A stretch of 64,000 nucleotides of DNA, taken from the NCBI RefSeq assembly GCF_988242995.1, contig NZ_OZ547043.1. The stretch is one strand, 5' to 3'. Below are positions 2,388 through 56,660 of this stretch, piece by piece. The position numbers and the translations under genes are program-made. Within the stretch, counting starts at the first letter, position 1, and each line of letters begins with the position of its first letter. The notes beneath the pieces are model-generated. The model was not told where the DNA came from. It worked only from the letters and a program-made list of their open reading frames with translations, and ran no database searches.

Positions 2388-3417
2388 AATCACCTGTTGT
2401 GTTGATAAGTTCCCTGACAACGCTGGTTGCAAAACTTCCCGCCGGAAGCCAGAAACGGATTTCTACGGTGACGTCATCCCACCAGTTCCAGCTTAATTGT
2501 TGCGGATACAGCAGCATCGCTCTGCGCGCGGCTTCAACTTTTTCGCGCACCAGTAAGGCTTGTAATTCAGTTTCTGCGGCGACAGCTGCTTGTTCGAATG
2601 CCAACGCTTCACGCTGAGTTCCCCATTCGCCACTGCCCGGCAATGCGGCGGTTATCATCAGCTCTTTATCGTTGACGCGACGCTGTAATTCCGCCAGTTC
2701 TTCGGTGGTTGCGACAAACCAGCTACCACGTCCGGCTAATTGTAGCGCATCGCCGTCAACAACTTGATTAACGTCTGCTTTTTTGAGGCGCTCAGCAACA
2801 ATCTGATTAAACAACGCACTGCGGGCTGCCGACAACCAAAAACTCCGTTTATTGCGATCGCGCACCGGAGTATTGGTTTGCGCCCAGCGCAGCGCGCCCT
2901 GCAAGTTGCTACCGCCAATCCCAAAACGTTGGGCACCGAAGTAGTTCGGTACACCTTTTACGCAAATATCGATCAGACGTTGTTCAACGTCATCGCGATT
3001 GCTCACTTCGCGCAGAACCAGGGTAAAGGCGTTACCTTTCAGCGCGCCTAAACGCAGCTTGCGCTTGTGCCGCGCATACTCCAGCACCTGGCAGCCTTCC
3101 AGTTGAAAGGCGCTCAGATCGGGCATTTCCTTGCCCGGCACGCGAGCGCATAACCACTGTTCCGTAACAGCATGTTTGTCTTTTTGCCCAGCGAAGCTGA
3201 CTTCACGGGAATGAATTTTCAGGAATTTCGCCAGTGCATCCGCCACAAAACGGGTATTGCAGCCGTTTTTGAGGATTCTAACCAGAATATGCTCACCTTC
3301 ACCATCAGGCTCAAAGCCCAAATCTTCCACCACCACAAAGTCTTCCGGATTGGCTTTCAGCAGCCCGGTGCCTTGCGGTTTACCGTGGAGGTAAGTGAGA
3401 TTATCAAACTCAATCAT
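2368..3417 (-). CDS. truD: tRNA pseudouridine(13) synthase TruD
   Basis: ORF track 349 aa, recognised as TruD by sequence and by position in the surE-truD-ispF-ispD-ftsB block. Confidence 0.92.
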
Positions 3418-3893
3418 TTTGTTGCCTTAATGAGTAGCGCCACCGCTTCACAGGCAATCCCTTCCCCACGTCCGGTAAATCCAAGTTTTTCCGTAGTAGT
3501 GGCTTTCACGTTAACATCATCCATATGGCAGCCGAGATCTTCGGCAATAAACACGCGCATTTGTGGAATGTGCGGCAACATCTTCGGTGCCTGAGCGATG
3601 ATAGTGACATCGACGTTGCCCAGGGTATAACCCTTCGCCTGAATACGACGCCAGGCTTCGCGTAGCAGCTCGCGGCTGTCAGCACCTTTAAATGCCGGAT
3701 CGGTATCCGGGAACAGTTTGCCGATATCCCCCAGCGCCGCCGCGCCAAGCAATGCATCGGTCAACGCATGGAGCGCCACGTCGCCATCAGAATGCGCCAG
3801 CAATCCTTTTTCGTAAGGAATGCGTACGCCACCAATGATAATTGGGCCTTCACCGCCAAAGGCGTGTACGTCAAAACCGTGTCCAATTCGCAT
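3414..3893 (-). CDS. ispF: 2-C-methyl-D-erythritol 2,4-cyclodiphosphate synthase
   Basis: ORF track 159 aa, [12 protein letters not shown]... recognised as IspF; 4 nt overlap with truD. Confidence 0.95.
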
Positions 3894-4603
3894 TATGTAT
3901 TCTCCTGATGGATGGTTCGGGTGAGGTAAAACTCGGCCAGTGCCAAATCTTCCGGGCGCGTGACTTTAATGTTATCCGCGCGGCCTTCGACCAACTGCGG
4001 ATGAAATCCGCAATATTCCAGCGCCGAGGCTTCGTCGGTAATGGTAGCGCCTTCATTTAGAGCGCGCATCAGGCAGTCATGTAACAGCTCACGAGGGAAA
4101 AATTGCGGCGTCAGCGCGTGCCATAAGCCGTTGCGATCAACGGTATGAGCAATGGCATTTTTGCCCGGTTCGGCACGTTTCATCGTATCGCGCACTGGTG
4201 CGGCGAGGATCCCCCCCGTGCGGCTGGTTTCGCTCAACGCCAACAATCGCGCGAGGTCATCCTGATGCAGACAAGGACGAGCGGCGTCATGCACCAATAC
4301 CCACTGCGCGTCGCCAGCGGCTTTCAGACCTGCCAGCACCGAATCGGCACGCTCATCACCGCCATCTACAACGGTGATTTGCGGATGATTCGCCAGAGGA
4401 AGTTGTGCAAAACGGCTATCGCCAGGACTTATGGCAATGACGACATGTTTCACCCGGGGGTGCGCCAGCAGCGCATGCACCGAGTGTTCAAGAATGGTTT
4501 GATTACCGATTGAGAGATATTGCTTAGGACATTCCGTTTGCATTCGACGGCCAAATCCGGCCGCCGGAACCACGGCGCAAACATCCAAATGAGTGGTTGC
4601 CAT
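3893..4603 (-). CDS. ispD: 2-C-methyl-D-erythritol 4-phosphate cytidylyltransferase
   Basis: ORF track 236 aa, [11 protein letters not shown] motif; stop/start overlap with ispF. Confidence 0.95.
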
Positions 4604-9751: not shown

Positions 9752-11000
9752 GGGAGTTCTACCGCAGGGGCGGGGAATTCTAAGTGATATCCATCATCGC
9801 ATCCAGTGCGTCCGGTTTATCCCCGCTGACGCGGGGAACACGCTTTTCCCCACGCGTCCAGATCTTCGACTGGCGGTTTATCCCCGCTGGCGCGGGGAAC
9901 ACTCATTAAATTGTTTTTCCCGATCCCAGCTCTGCGGTTTATCCCCGCTGGCGCGGGGAACACCTGGAGCGCAGAAAGTTTGATATCGAAAATGCCGGTT
10001 TATCCCCGCTGGCGCGGGGAACACAGTTAACAACCCGCGCCGAACAAGCCCGACAACGGTTTATCCCCGCTGGCGCGGGGAACACCAGGTTCGTAAAGGT
10101 GAACACGGCACGACGGCCGGTTTATCCCCGCTGGCGCGGGGAACACGCGTCGCCATTCTATTAGCTTTTCCTCATCACCGGTTTATCCCCGCTGGCGCGG
10201 GGAACACCCGACAATCTCCGCCTCCAGTCGGTCGACCTGCGGTTTATCCCCGCTGGCGCGGGGAACACTGTGCCCGACTGCGTGCCGCGTCGAGCGCCTG
10301 CGGTTTATCCCCGCTGGCGCGGGGAACACTTCGCCGCCATCATCCTGTGGTGCCAGTTGACCGGTTTATCCCCGCTGGCGCGGGGAACACATACCGCAGC
10401 AAATTACGGTTCCAGAAACGCGCGGTTTATCCCCGCTGGCGCGGGGAACACTGACACGTTAAACGGTGCGTTGTCGTCGCTGTCGGTTTATCCCCGCTGG
10501 CGCGGGGAACACCCTGCCGCCCCCTTTAGCCCATATGGGGGCGGCGGTTTATCCCCGCTGGCGCGGGGAACACTTCAACATTACGAAACGGGATCACGCC
10601 GCTGACGGTTTATCCCCGCTGGCGCGGGGAACACCGGCTCCGCGTCGACATAAAAGTCCTCGGGATCGGTTTATCCCCGCTGGCGCGGGGAACACATATT
10701 TCGCCCCGTCACGCTGAATCAGCCAGCCGGTTTATCCCCGCTGGCGCGGGGAACACTCGCTTTTAAAGCGCCGGAGGAAAGTAAGCTCCGGTTTATCCCC
10801 GCTGGCGCGGGGAACACTAGCATAAATTACCCGATCAGATCGCGGACATCGGTTTATCCCCGCTGGCGCGGGGAACACTCGATCAAAAATTTACAACCAA
10901 AGGCTTCAACCGGTTTATCCCCGCTGGCGCGGGGAACACTCCCCGGTATCAGAAATAATTCCCTGCTCGATCGGTTTATCCCCGCTGGCGCGGGGAACAC
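9752..11000 (-). CRISPR. CRISPR array, type I-E repeats, 21 repeats and 20 spacers
   Basis: 29 bp repeat CGGTTTATCCCCGCTGGCGCGGGGAACAC with exact 61 bp period, starts at 9813, 9874, ... 10972; all spacers 32 bp. Repeat at 9813 has one mismatch (CTGACGCG). A degenerate terminal repeat sits at 9752-9780 (about 19/29 matches). Leader is on the right, so crRNA is read on the minus strand. Confidence 0.98.
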
Positions 11001-16958: not shown

Positions 16959-19658
16959 TCAACCAACCTTGCCAGTCAATCCTTCCATAGCCGAATACCC
17001 GCAACTTTCGTCATCGGTAACTAAAATCACGTTTGCCATCTCCGGATCTTTCCGCTGTTCAATGCACCACTGCCTGAACGCTTCCCCTTCCAGTAAAGAA
17101 AACTCATCCCGATGTTTTTTCCACCAGCTTCGACGCACTCTGACAACGCTCATTTCCCATGCGTGAGCACCGTTGGCATAAGGCTTCACCACACTGGCAA
17201 TACAGGTAGCCAGCCACAGGGAAACAGACTCCTCCGCCAGACGTGTCGACAGCTTTTCCGGAAGGTAATCGTTGATATTGGCGGCATAGCCAGGCCTGAA
17301 GTTCAGCACAAACTTTTTAGCCATTGCGCGATCGCAGTAATATTTGCCCACTTGCTCCTGCTCGCTGCGGGCAAATCCTTCCGGCATTACCACGTCCTCA
17401 CCGTAGACTGATTCAATAAGAAGGCGGGCTGCGTGTGGCATTTGAATAGCGCCTTGCTCACGCAGTACACGCTGCGTCAGCCAGATTCGTCCATGATCGG
17501 GATAGACATATGCACTGTTACGCATGGCACTGCCGAACCATTCGTCACCTGGAGCGTCGTCCCAGACGGGGGCCAGAATCAGCAATTCAGGAGGGGAACG
17601 CTCGTCTTTTCCGTCACGCTTTAACTGACCATTAATATCGCGGATATGCCGCTGTAATCGCCCCGCTCGCTGGATCAGCAAATCAACAGGGGCCAGGTCG
17701 GAAATCATTTCGTCCATATCGCAATCAACGCTCGACTCTAAGACCTGAGTACAAATGAGGACTTTTCCGGCACGCTGTGAGCTATCTTCTTTACCGAAGC
17801 GTGCCAGCGTTTCCGTTTCAATTCGCTGGCGATCGCTAAAAGCAAAGCGGCTATGAAACAGAGAAAGGCTGGAAGCAGGAATGACGCCGCGGGCAAGCAA
17901 CTGACGATAAACCTTAATAGCGTCATCGACAGAATTCCGGATCCAGGCGATGCATTTCCCCTGACTTACTGCCGATTCGATACGCGCAATACATTCTTGT
18001 TCGCTATGAAGCCAACCCACGCTCACGCTACGCTCAACGTCTTTGCGCGTCGCTACCCGGTGTGAATGCACATCGGATTTCGTAACGTGCGTCAGCCAGG
18101 GGTAATCATCCTTTTCCAGGAACGGAGCTTCTTGCTGGCCCTCTGTACCACGCGCAAAGGCAGCAACGAGTTTGTCGCACTGCTGTTGAGATAACGTGGC
18201 AGAAAGCAAAATGACGCTGTTTCCGCCACGCGCCTGCCGCTCGATCAGCCCTTCAAGAATGCATGACATGTAAGCGTCACAGGCATGGATCTCATCAGCC
18301 AGCAGGATTTTGTTACTCAGTCCCAGAAGCCGCAGATTATTATGTTTGAACGGCATCACAGCCATCATCGCCTGATCCAGCGTGCCGACGCCAATTTCAG
18401 CCAGTAGCGCCTTCTTGTTACTGTCGGCAAACCAGGCCGCACATCCCTGACTGAACGTTTGTTCATCCGGTTCTTCTGACCCGACTAAATCACCGGACCA
18501 GAGTGATTCATTAAAGCGGTCCATTAATGTTCGGGCACTGTGTGCCAGCACCAGGCTGGGGCGGGACTCTGGCGAATAGAAAGCAAGCCAGGTTTTGACC
18601 AGTCGATCGTACATGGCATTGGCCGTTGCCATTGTTGGCAGGCCAAAAAACAAACCCTGCGCTTTACCCGCAGCCATCAACCTGTGCGCCAGGATAAGCG
18701 CCGCTTCCGTTTTACCTGCGCCAGTCACATCTTCCAGAATAAATAACTGTGGCCCTGGCTGGCTGATATCCAGATCCAGCACCTTTTGCTGTAACGGTGT
18801 CGGATTCTCAATAAAAGGAAACAGCGTATTAATTCCGGTGAAAGGCGCGACTTTTGCTTTTAGAGGAAAGACGGTTAAGGCGTTTTGAGCCTGAACTAAA
18901 GTTTTCTGCCAGTAACCTTTATTATCCATTGGGTGTGCGACGCGTGGAAAAAATCGCGTTGACGAACCCGTCCAGTCTGCGAGCACGACGGTTGCAGAGA
19001 TATACCAGGAAAGGTGTTTTATAAGTTCAATGCCCTCATCATCATCCCAGAATGCGGGGATCTCTATGAGCGGAAACAGTGGTTTGATTTCAAGAAGAAA
19101 ATCTCGCGCGGCAGCTTTGTCTTCAGGCAGAAAATTATCCAGTTCATCAATACGGTCAGGCGGGCGACCATGATGCCCGGTAGTTATGGGCATCCACATC
19201 GCTATTACACGTGTAAGTTTGCGGGGAGAGAGTGAAGAGGAAGGAAGTAACTCCTGACATTCACTTAAATAATGATGCCACAACCAGTAGCCCAGCGTTG
19301 AATGAGAGATTTTTTCGTAATTTTTTCTAGCACCTTCCGGAACCCTGAGTTTCGGGTGCAGGTAAAGTTGCTGAAATGAGCGGGCAAATTTACCAGTATC
19401 GTGCCAGCACAACAACCAGGCGAAAAATTGAGCCGCCTGTTCCTTGTCAGAAATCTCTAATTGACGAAAATAGTCAGCCAGTCCGAAGCAATTGCTTTTA
19501 ACCATTAAATAGCCCATCGCGGCTACATCCAGCGAATGCCAGCAAAGAAGGTGATAGTCGTCGCCCCCGTCTTTCTCGCCGCGTCGGGTTTTTCCCCAGA
19601 AATCAAAAAAAGTCACAATATTTTTATCCTTCAGTAAACTTAAAGGATATTTACGCAT
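16959..19658 (-). CDS. cas3: Cas3 HD-nuclease/helicase
   Basis: ORF track 899 aa with N-terminal HD region and DEAD/DEAH helicase motifs; only 91 bp upstream of casA. Confidence 0.93.
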   Translation of the reverse strand: MRKYPLSLLKDKNIVTFFDFWGKTRRGEKDGGDDYHLLCWHSLDVAAMGYLMVKSNCFGLADYFRQLEISDKEQAAQFFAWLLCWHDTGKFARSFQQLYLHPKLRVPEGARKNYEKISHSTLGYWLWHHYLSECQELLPSSSLSPRKLTRVIAMWMPITTGHHGRPPDRIDELDNFLPEDKAAARDFLLEIKPLFPLIEIPAFWDDDEGIELIKHLSWYISATVVLADWTGSSTRFFPRVAHPMDNKGYWQKTLVQAQNALTVFPLKAKVAPFTGINTLFPFIENPTPLQQKVLDLDISQPGPQLFILEDVTGAGKTEAALILAHRLMAAGKAQGLFFGLPTMATANAMYDRLVKTWLAFYSPESRPSLVLAHSARTLMDRFNESLWSGDLVGSEEPDEQTFSQGCAAWFADSNKKALLAEIGVGTLDQAMMAVMPFKHNNLRLLGLSNKILLADEIHACDAYMSCILEGLIERQARGGNSVILLSATLSQQQCDKLVAAFARGTEGQQEAPFLEKDDYPWLTHVTKSDVHSHRVATRKDVERSVSVGWLHSEQECIARIESAVSQGKCIAWIRNSVDDAIKVYRQLLARGVIPASSLSLFHSRFAFSDRQRIETETLARFGKEDSSQRAGKVLICTQVLESSVDCDMDEMISDLAPVDLLIQRAGRLQRHIRDINGQLKRDGKDERSPPELLILAPVWDDAPGDEWFGSAMRNSAYVYPDHGRIWLTQRVLREQGAIQMPHAARLLIESVYGEDVVMPEGFARSEQEQVGKYYCDRAMAKKFVLNFRPGYAANINDYLPEKLSTRLAEESVSLWLATCIASVVKPYANGAHAWEMSVVRVRRSWWKKHRDEFSLLEGEAFRQWCIEQRKDPEMANVILVTDDESCGYSAMEGLTGKVG

Positions 19659-19852
19659 ATATTAAAAATTATCTGTGATATATATCGTTCAATAAAATAT
19701 TTACATTATGAATAATCAAATAATTTTCATCAGTAATATATATGAATAATAAACATAGGCATAATATTCACATAAACAATATAAATTAAAAAAGGGTGCA
19801 GGAGACCAAACCATCACAATTCAATACGCGGGGTTTTACCCCCGCGTGGTGG

Positions 19853-20005
19853 CTACTTCTTCGATTCGTAAGCGAGAACTGCCTTAAACTCCATACCACG
19901 TTCTCTGATACTCAACTCACACAACGAGTCGCCTACCATCAGCGTGAATCCCAGTACTGTACAACACAGTACGATGATTGCCACAAGGGCATATTTTGTC
20001 AGCAT
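19853..20005 (-). CDS. Hok/Gef-family type I toxin (HokE-like), 50 aa
   Basis: Hand-translated minus-strand [53 protein letters not shown]: one TM helix then the Hok signature (SLCE...IR...AYES). GGGAGG Shine-Dalgarno 6 nt upstream. Not in the ORF track (below size cut-off); the 84 aa plus-strand ORF 19796..20050 is its antisense. Confidence 0.7.
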
Positions 20006-20270
20006 GTCTTGCCTCCCTGCAAAGAAGAGACTAACATTCGAATTGCTTAGGTTCGAACGCTGGCCTCAGGTTGATAGAAATATCGCCTGGGGCTTTTGTC
20101 CATCTGGAACCTCGCGAATGCTTAACGCCAGACAGCCTCAAGCACCCAACGCCATTCTATACTTGATAATTCTTCCAGCGGCGTTCACGTTTAAAATCAG
20201 GAATGCTGCTCGCAAAATAAAAACGCCCCCATCTTTTCAGACAGAGACGTTTATTAAGCGGTACGATATT

Positions 20271-21005
20271 TTACCCTTCGTGCAGCCCACATTCCCTTTT
20301 TAAGCCAAAGAAACGCGTTTCTTCTTCCGCCATGCCGGGTTCCCATTTACGGGTTGTATGGGTATCACCGACGGATAAATATCCTTCGTCCCATAATGGA
20401 TGATATTTCAGGCCATGTTTTTGCAGATACTGATATATCGTTCGGTTATCCCAGTCGATAATCGGCAGCACTTTAAATACGCCACGCTGAATTGCCAGCA
20501 CCGGTAAATTGGCGCGACTGCCGGATTGTTCGCGGCGCAGGCCAGCAAACCACGTTTGCGCATTCAGTTCTTTCAGCGCCCGGTTCATCGGTTCGACTTT
20601 GTTGATGTCATTGTACTTTTCAATGCCTTCAACACCCTGCTCCCACAGTTTGCCGTAGCGCGCTTCCTGCCAGGCGGCGCTTTCGGTAGCGCGGTACACT
20701 TTCAGGTTGAGCTTGAGTTTGTCCGTTAACTCGTCAATAAAGCGGTAGGTTTCCGGGAACAGATAACCCGTATCGGTCAGGATCACCGGGATATCCGGGT
20801 GAATCTGATTCACCAGATGCAGGCTCACCGCCGCCTGAATGCCGAAACTGGAAGAAAGTACATATTCACCGGGCAGATTATCCAGCGCCCAGGCAACGCG
20901 GCCTTCAGCATCCAGTTTTTCCAGTTCGGCGTTAGTTTCTGCCAGCGCCAGAATGCGATCTACCTTCGGCAGTTCGTTCAGGGCGTTTAGATCGAGTTTG
21001 GACAT
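20271..21005 (-). CDS. cysH: Phosphoadenosine phosphosulfate reductase
   Basis: ORF track 20271..21158; start trimmed to [14 protein letters not shown] (244 aa) because the upstream extension runs through the REP element and cysI stop. Confidence 0.92.
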
Positions 21006-56249: not shown

Positions 56250-56292
56250 AAAGCAACCTCAATAAGAAAAACTGCCGCGAAGGATAGCAGGA

Positions 56293-56660
56293 ATAAAAAA
56301 AGGGAGCACTGTATTCACAGTGCTCCCGGTTCGTTTCGCAGCATTCCAGCTACTTTTGTTGCTCCCTGCTCATCCTTGACAACTTTTCCTCTGGCCTTGC
56401 GGCCAATCGTTCATCCTGAACTATTGCTTCCTGCTCACACCACCCCGATGTGATACTTCATCCTGAAGTGTCCCTGGCCTTCCTGACCCACCGAATCATC
56501 CTGACCGGTTCTCATTCTCCATCCTGGAGGTGTCCTTTAACGCGTCCTGCGTCATCCTCTTCGCTTCATCCAGAAGCCTTTCCCTGAAACACCATCCTGG
56601 TGTGTCCTTCAGAAGTGTCATCATCCTGATGTTCACTTCGTTGTCTGACTCCCTGTCGAC
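56293..56660 (-). ncRNA. csrB: CsrB small RNA (CsrA-sequestering)
   Basis: Minus strand carries at least 8 CAGGATG-type and about 18 GGA motifs (plus-strand CATCCTG repeats), begins GTCGACAGGGAGTCAGACAACGAAG, and ends with hairpin GGGAGCACTG / CAGTGCTCCC (56302-56327) plus U7. Length about 368 nt, matching csrB. Confidence 0.9.

Follow-up and report, generated by a model that had tools for sequence, protein, structure and literature searches.

An intact hokX/sokX locus lies between cysH and cas3

We found that the interval between cysH and the type I-E cas3 gene in the window, by which we mean the whole 64,000-nucleotide stretch of DNA analyzed here, holds an intact chromosomal hokX/sokX locus of a kind that is already known, annotated, and widespread. 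The locus very probably constitutes an intact type I toxin-antitoxin module, most likely one with the mechanism of the R1 hok/mok/sok system. The hokX (HokG) toxin open reading frame (ORF) occupies positions 19853 to 20005 on the minus strand and encodes 50 amino acids; it was assigned from the ORF list, a Pfam match, and identity to HokE. Its neighbors, cysH (stop at 20271) and cas3 (start at 19658), are on the minus strand like hok. The initial annotation had reported this 50-codon ORF, and we found it with exactly the translation quoted there. The GGGAGG ribosome-binding site reported with it is likewise present, as a Shine-Dalgarno (SD) sequence at 20017 to 20012 on the minus strand, 6 nt upstream of the ATG. 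The region around it, GGAGGCAA, is almost invariant across 51 homologous loci.

The window peptide has a single N-terminal hydrophobic helix followed by the conserved SLCE...AYES tail. It had been assigned to the Hok/Gef family and described as closest to HokE, and both statements were borne out. A profile search matched Pfam PF01848 (HOK_GEF) with an i-Evalue of 6.3e-10 and 38.9 bits, aligning residues 5 to 46 with positions 1 to 42 of the 42-position model. Among the K-12 paralogues, identity is highest for HokE (78%), followed by HokA (48%), HokC (39%), and HokB (33%). Residues M1, C14, T16, L28, E30, E39, and A45 are invariant in an alignment of K-12 HokA, HokB, HokC, and HokE, and the window peptide has all of them. 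We considered HokA as the identity of the peptide and dropped it on the NCBIfam scores: the HokA equivalog model NF007290 gave 53 bits, under its curated cutoff of 89, and the Hok subfamily model NF007279 gave 39.5 bits, under its curated cutoff of 73. Because the HokA model score is below the curated cutoff, we regard the peptide as a Hok but not as HokA. No HokX- or HokE-specific NCBIfam model was returned at an E value of 1 or less, and the PADLOC defense models gave no match to the window peptide.

Among cysH-linked orthologues, dN/dS of the peptide is 0.04 to 0.2 at dS values of up to 0.96. Therefore, the constraint is on the protein and not on the RNA alone. By this measure, the HokX peptide is under purifying selection. 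The window copy is also complete, with no IS element, frameshift, or premature stop, in agreement with the initial description of an intact toxin frame. By analogy with the R1 system, the peptide would be toxic.

ORFs of 50 codons are common by chance, and the NCBIfam scores fall under their curated cutoffs. We therefore weighed whether hokX is an open frame that arose by chance in an intergenic region and bears a superficial resemblance to Hok. This is countered by the Pfam E value of 6.3e-10, by 78% identity to HokE over the full length, and by the Rfam match of the leader described below. It is countered also by a dN/dS well below 1 and by conservation in 4,220 genomes and in many genera. 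We consider a chance ORF extremely improbable.

The locus is known and widespread and is truncated in K-12

The initial annotation had presented the gene as unlisted, which proved incorrect. The identical protein already has the RefSeq entry WP_000956458.1 ("Hok/Gef family protein") and is found in UniProt/UniRef as HOKG_ECO57 ("Putative protein HokG"), with "protein HokE" as another source name. The identical peptide sequence occurs on at least 1,000 contigs. In E. coli strain MEW, whose sequence matches the window segment at 100% identity, the ORF carries the annotation WP_000956458.1, as it also does in O157:H7 and further strains. A search with hok and its 3' flank (19794 to 20005) at 95% identity or more found the segment in 4,220 of 5,426 complete E. 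coli genomes, and it was chromosomal every time. When one genome per species was scanned, close relatives were encoded at 56 loci, in Escherichia, Pseudocitrobacter, Kluyvera, Klebsiella, Citrobacter, Enterobacter, and other genera.

In the literature, the locus next to cysH is named hokX/sokX (PMC12736100, PMC7232551, PMC3903273). hokX was first identified in E. coli B and has been placed in the cysH-iap intergenic region (PMC7232551). Another paper treats hok/sok as a building block of the CRISPR-I region and reports it from every E. coli strain analyzed other than carriers of the K-12-type cas variant (PMC3903273). In O157:H7 EDL933, both RNA-seq and Ribo-seq reads were reported at the "sok_15/sokX" region (PMC5331693). 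Compared with E. coli hokX/sokX as known from other strains, the window locus has the same position downstream of cysH, an identical peptide, and a near-identical leader and sokX.

In K-12 MG1655, the sole annotated element of the cas3-cysH interval is the ncRNA sokX (b4701). K-12 and the window are near identical from 20003 to about 20250, and the homology stops at 20003, just past the hok ATG. Thus, K-12 retains the leader and the antitoxin gene but has lost the toxin: all of the locus 3' of the hok ATG is gone there, whereas the window copy is complete.

The hok leader and the ends of the hok transcript

We examined the leader by comparison with Rfam. Model RF01794 ("sok") matched 20147 to 19990 on the hok-sense strand with 111.7 bits against a gathering score of 59 (E = 4.4e-26; model positions 1 to 157). 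Over its 157 nt, the match begins at the conserved mRNA 5' end GGGUGCUUGAGG and reaches a short way into the hok ORF. RF01794 in effect recognizes the hok leader, which holds the Sok complement. The 5' end of the hok mRNA was placed at 20147, where position 1 of the model aligns. The predicted full-length hok mRNA is 354 nt long (19794 to 20147, minus strand) and runs from GGGUGCUUGAGGC at its 5' end to GCACCC at its 3' end. In 50 other loci, the distance from GGGUGC to GCACC(C/U) is 350 to 361 nt. These loci are distinct in sequence and have both end motifs; with the window, they make up the 51-sequence alignment.

Directly 3' of the terminal element, fbi, there is a run of six Ts (19788 to 19793, minus strand) at which the transcript likely ends, and homology with cas-less strains stops at 19787, just past this run. 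R1 presumably has a separate terminator hairpin after fbi, whereas in the window fbi is directly followed by the T-run. A consensus promoter/terminator scan detected no hok promoter, no Sok promoter, and no local terminator hairpin after hok at the T-run; the sole terminator that it found is that of cysH. The candidate hok promoter has a -10 element, TATAGAAT, at 20154 to 20161 on the minus strand, 6 nt before the G at 20147, and no good -35 element upstream of it. By analogy with the R1 system, the transcript would have the ends given here and would be processed at its 3' end.

Two other matches in this region were rejected. A promoter-like match at 20002 to 19974 on the minus strand falls within the ORF and is no more than chance would give (1 found versus 2.1 expected). 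An Rfam match to ctRNA_p42d at 20212 to 20254, which is the cysH terminator, scored 26 bits, short of the gathering score of 50.

SokX is predicted to be encoded opposite the leader

The initial annotation had expected an antisense Sok RNA on the plus strand over the leader, at about 20030 to 20110. K-12 sokX maps to 20045 to 20103 on the plus strand, as expected. The gene was placed by transferring the K-12 annotation (ncRNA sokX, b4701, NC_000913.3 2887353 to 2887411) through the near-identical alignment. The predicted SokX fold (-22.7 kcal/mol) has an unpaired 5' tail, a long terminator-like stem-loop, and a UUUUGU end. SokB of K-12 and SokX start at homologous positions (GCUAGGUUCAU... versus GCUUAGGUUCGAA...).

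A candidate Sok promoter lies at 20009 to 20037 on the plus strand, with TTGCCT at 20009 to 20014, a spacer of 17 nt, and TAACAT at 20032 to 20037, which would put +1 at 20045. In the 51 loci, positions T1, A2, A5, and T6 of the -10 box are invariant, as are the first five bases (TTGCC) of the -35 hexamer. The consensus scan missed this promoter because only 8 of 12 consensus positions match. Homology and fold are the grounds on which we predict a cis-encoded Sok over the leader. By sequence comparison, both the membership of the peptide in the Hok family and the homology of the leader and sokX are established.

The window RNA preserves the alternative helices of R1 hok mRNA

We found that the pairing scheme of the window RNA is the one described for R1 (PMC9841398). 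The tac element at the mRNA 5' end (20135 to 20147, minus strand) is predicted to have two partners, fbi while the mRNA is full length and ucb once it has been processed. The fbi element, GGUCUCCUGCACCC (19807 to 19794, minus strand), is the partner of the 5' end at 20147 to 20135: in the minimum free energy (MFE) structure of the full-length RNA, nt 1 to 6 and 9 to 13 are paired with 19794 to 19806. The ucb or anti-SD box, AAGCCCCAGG (20086 to 20095, minus strand), has the CCUGAGGC box as its partner in the full-length form and tac in the processed form. In the full-length MFE structure, the ucb segment GCCCCAGG (20093 to 20086) is paired with CCUGAGGC, which contains the GAGG at 20067 to 20064. 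When the last 28 to 39 nt were removed, the predicted fold shifted: the 5' end folded locally and GAGGC paired with the dcb element, GUCUC. The resulting Sok-target hairpin (20027 to 20067, minus strand), in which the mok-type GAGG at 20067 to 20064 is closed by dcb at 20031 to 20027, is present both in the MFE structure of the truncated RNA and in the Rfam consensus structure.

These helices are pairable in most cells of the 51-sequence alignment. For tac/fbi, helix 1 (1 to 6 with 349 to 354) is paired in 100% of cells and helix 2 in 79%, versus 35 to 57% in slid controls, and GCACC(C/U) occurs 49 to 65 nt past the stop in 51 of 51 loci. The tac/ucb helix, which is also part of the Rfam consensus structure, is pairable in 95.0% of cells, ucb/GAGG in 98.2%, and GAGG/dcb in 98.8%, the last with 7 compensatory AU-to-GC cells. 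Over all helices, controls in which the partners were slid by 1 to 3 columns left 29 to 68% of cells pairable. Compensatory changes were seen in the inner stem of the Sok-target hairpin (8 to 22 cells) and also in the first leader hairpin, while the long-range helices are supported mainly by invariance and show little covariation. On this comparative evidence, all four alternative helices are preserved in the window locus. RNAalifold proposed an alternative pairing of ucb with hok codons 6 to 9. We kept it as an alternative and did not adopt it because the single-sequence MFE structure and the R1 model concur on ucb/GAGG.

The 3' end of the processed mRNA is predicted to be a conserved GC-rich stem-loop at 19827 to 19846 on the minus strand, formed by CGCGGGGG (19846 to 19839) and CCCCGCG (19833 to 19827). 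RNAalifold paired positions 319 to 326 with 334 to 341 here, with 15 and 4 compensatory changes. The initial annotation had noted this hairpin at about 19824 to 19845 and likened it to the fold-back element of hok mRNA. The hairpin is present at 19827 to 19846, but it is not the fold-back element, which is fbi at 19807 to 19794. In R1, mutation of the last 3' stem-loop of the truncated mRNA abolished toxicity (PMC9841398).

A proposed mechanism for hokX/sokX

Like R1 hok/mok/sok, the window locus has a peptide of the Hok family and an antisense Sok opposite the leader, together with the tac/fbi-ucb-dcb scheme, the 3' stem-loop, and a leader ORF extending to the hok start. We propose the following course of events by analogy. 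A weak promoter near 20154 to 20161 would give rise to a stable mRNA of about 354 nt, running from 20147 to about 19794 on the minus strand. In the full-length mRNA, tac would pair with fbi and ucb with the GAGG box, so that the mRNA would be neither translated nor bound by Sok. Slow 3' trimming to the GC stem-loop (19846 to 19827) would remove fbi. The 5' end would then pair with ucb, and pairing of GAGG with dcb would form the Sok-target hairpin. Ribosomes on the leader ORF (20037 to 19999) would cross the hok SD and finish at the hok start, and the 50-amino-acid membrane peptide would be made. The unstable SokX (20045 to 20103, plus strand), made from a presumably stronger promoter, would pair with the leader, which would block expression and set off cleavage of the duplex. 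RNase III cleavage and translational coupling are both taken over from the R1 system and are put forward here as probable by analogy. Post-segregational killing of plasmid-free cells, as in R1, does not apply to the window locus because it is chromosomal.

The leader ORF as a candidate mok equivalent

The 12-codon upstream ORF of the initial annotation is present at 20037 to 19999 on the minus strand, and its TGA stop overlaps hok codons 2 and 3. This ORF is the only mok candidate in the window leader, and mok-like translational coupling through it is plausible by analogy. It differs from R1 mok, which has 70 codons and starts 8 nt after the GAGG SD, within the Sok-complementary region (PMC9841398). 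With its 12 codons, the window ORF begins 26 nt past GAGG with no clear SD and lies outside the SokX complementarity, its ATG being 8 nt beyond the end of that region and base paired in the predicted Sok-target hairpin. There is no ATG, GTG, or TTG 4 to 11 nt past the SokX-covered GAGG in the window, and only 8 of 51 relatives have a start codon at that distance. K-12 hokB/mokB/sokB and hokC/mokC/sokC share the family and the leader elements with the window, although their peptides are only 33 to 39% identical to HokX. In mokB and mokC, an ATG overlapped by Sok follows GAGG by 7 nt; the window has UCG there.

An upstream ATG is found at -32, -33, or -36 in 45 of the 51 homologous loci. At -32, the ATG is out of frame and opens a 12-codon ORF with a stop that overlaps the hok start. 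An ATG at -33 or -36 instead extends hok in frame by 10 to 12 N-terminal residues, as in K-12 hokE. Ribosomes starting at the upstream ATG would cross the hok SD, with the sole exception of one relative (L056), where a stop follows after five codons. K-12 hokE/sokE (b4415/b4835) is the closest paralogue of the window locus, with 78% peptide identity, the same leader architecture, and a homologous upstream ATG, and SokE, like SokX, ends 8 nt before this ATG. The hokE SD-to-ATG spacer is 4 nt longer than that of hokX, and the upstream ATG of hokE is in frame, giving a 12-residue N-terminal extension. In contrast, the upstream ATG of hokX is out of frame, with its stop on the hok start.

The leader ATG is the reverse complement of positions 4 to 6 of the Sok -10 box. 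The remaining 6 of 51 relatives have no upstream ATG but have ATA instead and keep a -10-like TACTAT. Because the ATG coincides with the Sok -10 box, its conservation is no proof of a coding role.

These observations bear on whether hokX is a silent relic, in which the SD-proximal mok start was lost, hok was uncoupled from translation, and the toxin is never made, like the K-12 hok loci. In favor of this reading, the window GAGG lacks the following start codon that 8 of 51 relatives and K-12 mokB and mokC have, and the -32 ATG has no obvious SD and is base paired in the predicted hairpin. Furthermore, K-12 deleted the toxin part without apparent harm, and other strains carry an IS in the 3' hairpin. 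However, purifying selection on the peptide (dN/dS of 0.04 to 0.2, dS to 0.96) implies a translated and relevant peptide. The leader layout of the window is the majority state of the HokX/HokE subgroup (45 of 51) and is therefore not a recent lesion. Moreover, R1 requires no more than that translation proceeds as far as the hok start region; the Mok product itself does not matter (PMC9841398). Thus, we judge a silent relic unlikely and favor the intact module.

It is possible, though we hold it doubtful, that the HokX/HokE subgroup gave up the SD-proximal mok start and replaced it with a 10- to 12-codon leader ORF that ends on hok or is fused with it.

The 3' hairpin is a recurrent insertion site

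Degenerate copies, with which the initial annotation had suggested comparing the locus, do exist: K-12 keeps only the leader and sokX, and strain ECE228 has IS421 in the 3' hairpin. In ECE228, hok and cas3 are separated by the transposase of IS421 (IS186 family), and homology with the window picks up again at 19831, within the 3' arm of the GC hairpin. The search with hok and its 3' flank returned 521 more places than genomes over the 5,426 complete E. coli genomes, a surplus consistent with an IS splitting the segment in roughly a tenth of genomes. In K-12, hokC and hokE have IS186 at the corresponding hairpin, which in hokE puts the insertion 3' of the gene. The 3' GC hairpin is a recurrent IS186/IS421 insertion site. 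An IS at this hairpin cuts fbi off from the mRNA. In contrast to such hokX loci of other strains, the window copy has no IS421/IS186-family element in the hairpin. All five K-12 hok loci are reported to be inactive (PMC7232551, citing Pedersen and Gerdes 1999); thus, chromosomal hok loci often decay.

hokX/sokX belongs to the cysH side of the junction

The initial annotation had considered a toxin-antitoxin addiction module plausible at the boundary of the CRISPR-Cas locus. We asked whether hokX/sokX could serve the neighboring type I-E CRISPR-Cas system as an addiction or safeguard element, such that loss of cas would remove Sok and kill the cell. The window has hok and cas3 on one strand, with hok 135 nt upstream, and the same order of hok followed by cas3 was seen in Escherichia sp. 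MOD1-EC7003, E. coli SCPM-O-B-8794, E. albertii, and one Pseudocitrobacter assembly. However, strain MRY15-117 has the identical gene between iap and cysH without cas genes, and hok/sok is also present in E. coli strains without cas-E genes (PMC3903273). cysH-hok synteny is kept in Kluyvera, Lelliottia, and strain RIT691, in which the 2.5-kb flank yielded no cas3. Conversely, K-12 kept its cas genes and lost hok. Because the toxin and antitoxin genes overlap, deleting cas would not separate one from the other and would leave both intact.

Across Escherichia species, Kluyvera, Lelliottia, and RIT691, cysH is about 270 bp upstream of hok, while cas3 follows in only four loci. By synteny, the hokX/sokX module is part of the cysH side of the junction and not of the CRISPR-Cas cassette, and judged by gene content it shows no genetic linkage to or dependence on the cas genes of the kind that a CreTA-like idea would call for. 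The occurrence in a cas-less strain and in other genera, together with the cysH synteny, therefore gives no support to a CRISPR-Cas addiction role, which we consider very unlikely.

Significance of the window locus

Beyond correct annotation, the finding itself has little significance, since the locus is a known and widespread chromosomal copy of hok/sok. The biological role of chromosomal hok loci is still debated. The window copy, unlike that of K-12, is complete and free of IS elements and thus lends itself to functional work on chromosomal hok loci. What is unusual is the arrangement of the leader ORF in the HokX/HokE subgroup, most of which has no mok start close to the SD. If the leader ORF is indeed the coupling device, then SokX cannot occlude the leader ORF initiation site. 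Its action would be limited to cleavage set off by the duplex or to the blocking of a structured standby site, and the GAGG box would be retained for nothing but its structural pairing with ucb and dcb. This would be a variant regulatory logic inside a textbook system.

Pairing and signals in the hokX leader

The consensus structure from RNAalifold places the ucb box of the hokX mRNA, GCCCCAGG (window 20093-20086), in a helix with CCUUGUGGC (19988-19980), which lies inside the toxin reading frame at hok codons 6-9. In A3, our alignment of 51 homologous sequences, this helix joins columns 59-67 with columns 173-181, and it can form in nearly all of the sequences. Hok codons 6-9 are a possible third partner for ucb, beside tac (the mRNA 5' end, 20135-20147) and the GAGG box (20067-20064). 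The predicted helix may help to inhibit the full-length mRNA as an extra pairing; alternatively, its conservation may be a by-product of conservation at the protein level.

The 12-codon leader ORF begins with an ATG whose reverse complement is part of TAACAT (20032-20037), the candidate -10 box of Sok. Because of this overlap, a single hexamer may have a role on each strand, and neither feature's conservation can be read independently of the other's.

Disruption and possible transfer of the locus

In other E. coli strains, the GC hairpin that closely follows hok is interrupted in its 3' arm by an element of the IS421/IS186 family (locus L009, a homologous locus from another assembly, 2834-3946; equivalent window position, about 19831). 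The insertion cuts the fold-back inhibitory element (fbi) off from the hok gene. In K-12, hokC and hokE likewise carry IS186 at the hairpin equivalent to that of hokX. Searching 5,426 complete E. coli genomes at ≥95% identity for hok with its 3' segment gave 4,741 places in 4,220 genomes, and the difference between these counts suggests about 500 IS-split alleles. K-12 MG1655 has lost hokX by a deletion with its boundary directly after the hok ATG (window 20003): the leader, sokX, and the hok start codon are retained, and unrelated sequence replaces everything 3' of them.

The cysH-hok locus was also present in assemblies labelled Pseudocitrobacter (loci L014-L016, L020, L022, L026, L062, and L065). 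There, CysH is 97-99% and Hok 98% identical to the E. coli proteins, Cas3 is 92% identical in one assembly, and several additional HokX/E-type copies occur. Such identity is unusually high between genera; recent transfer, close relatedness, and contamination are all possible explanations.

Neighboring features and the antitoxin strand

Directly after the fbi box is a run of six T residues (19788-19807 for the two together). A promoter/terminator scan found no local terminator hairpin there, and the U-run is preceded only by the long-range tac/fbi helix. Another 135 nt along, and on the strand that carries hok, is the start codon of cas3; the stretch in between (19659-19790) has a G+C content of 16-20%. 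Transcription of hok could conceivably read through into cas3 or interact with the cas3 promoter. A type I-E CRISPR array lies downstream of the cas genes (10179-10941; period, 61 bp; repeat, CGGTTTATCCCCGCTGGCGCGGGGAACAC).

On the cysH side, we rejected a weak ctRNA_p42d match (20212-20254, minus strand; Rfam, 26 bits; gathering score, 50). It coincides with the cysH intrinsic terminator (stem 20252-20221 plus T-run, minus strand) and is a chance likeness of that hairpin. Elsewhere in the window, Rfam identified a full-length CsrB sRNA gene (56292-56651, minus strand; RF00018, 382.9 bits).

The match to Rfam family RF01794 ("sok antitoxin," a model of 157 positions) is on the hok-sense strand; it begins at the 5' end of the mRNA and extends into the ORF (19990-20147, minus strand). 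What the family matches in the window is not the antisense gene of about 59 nt on the plus strand, and the antitoxin would be mislabelled if its strand were copied from this match.
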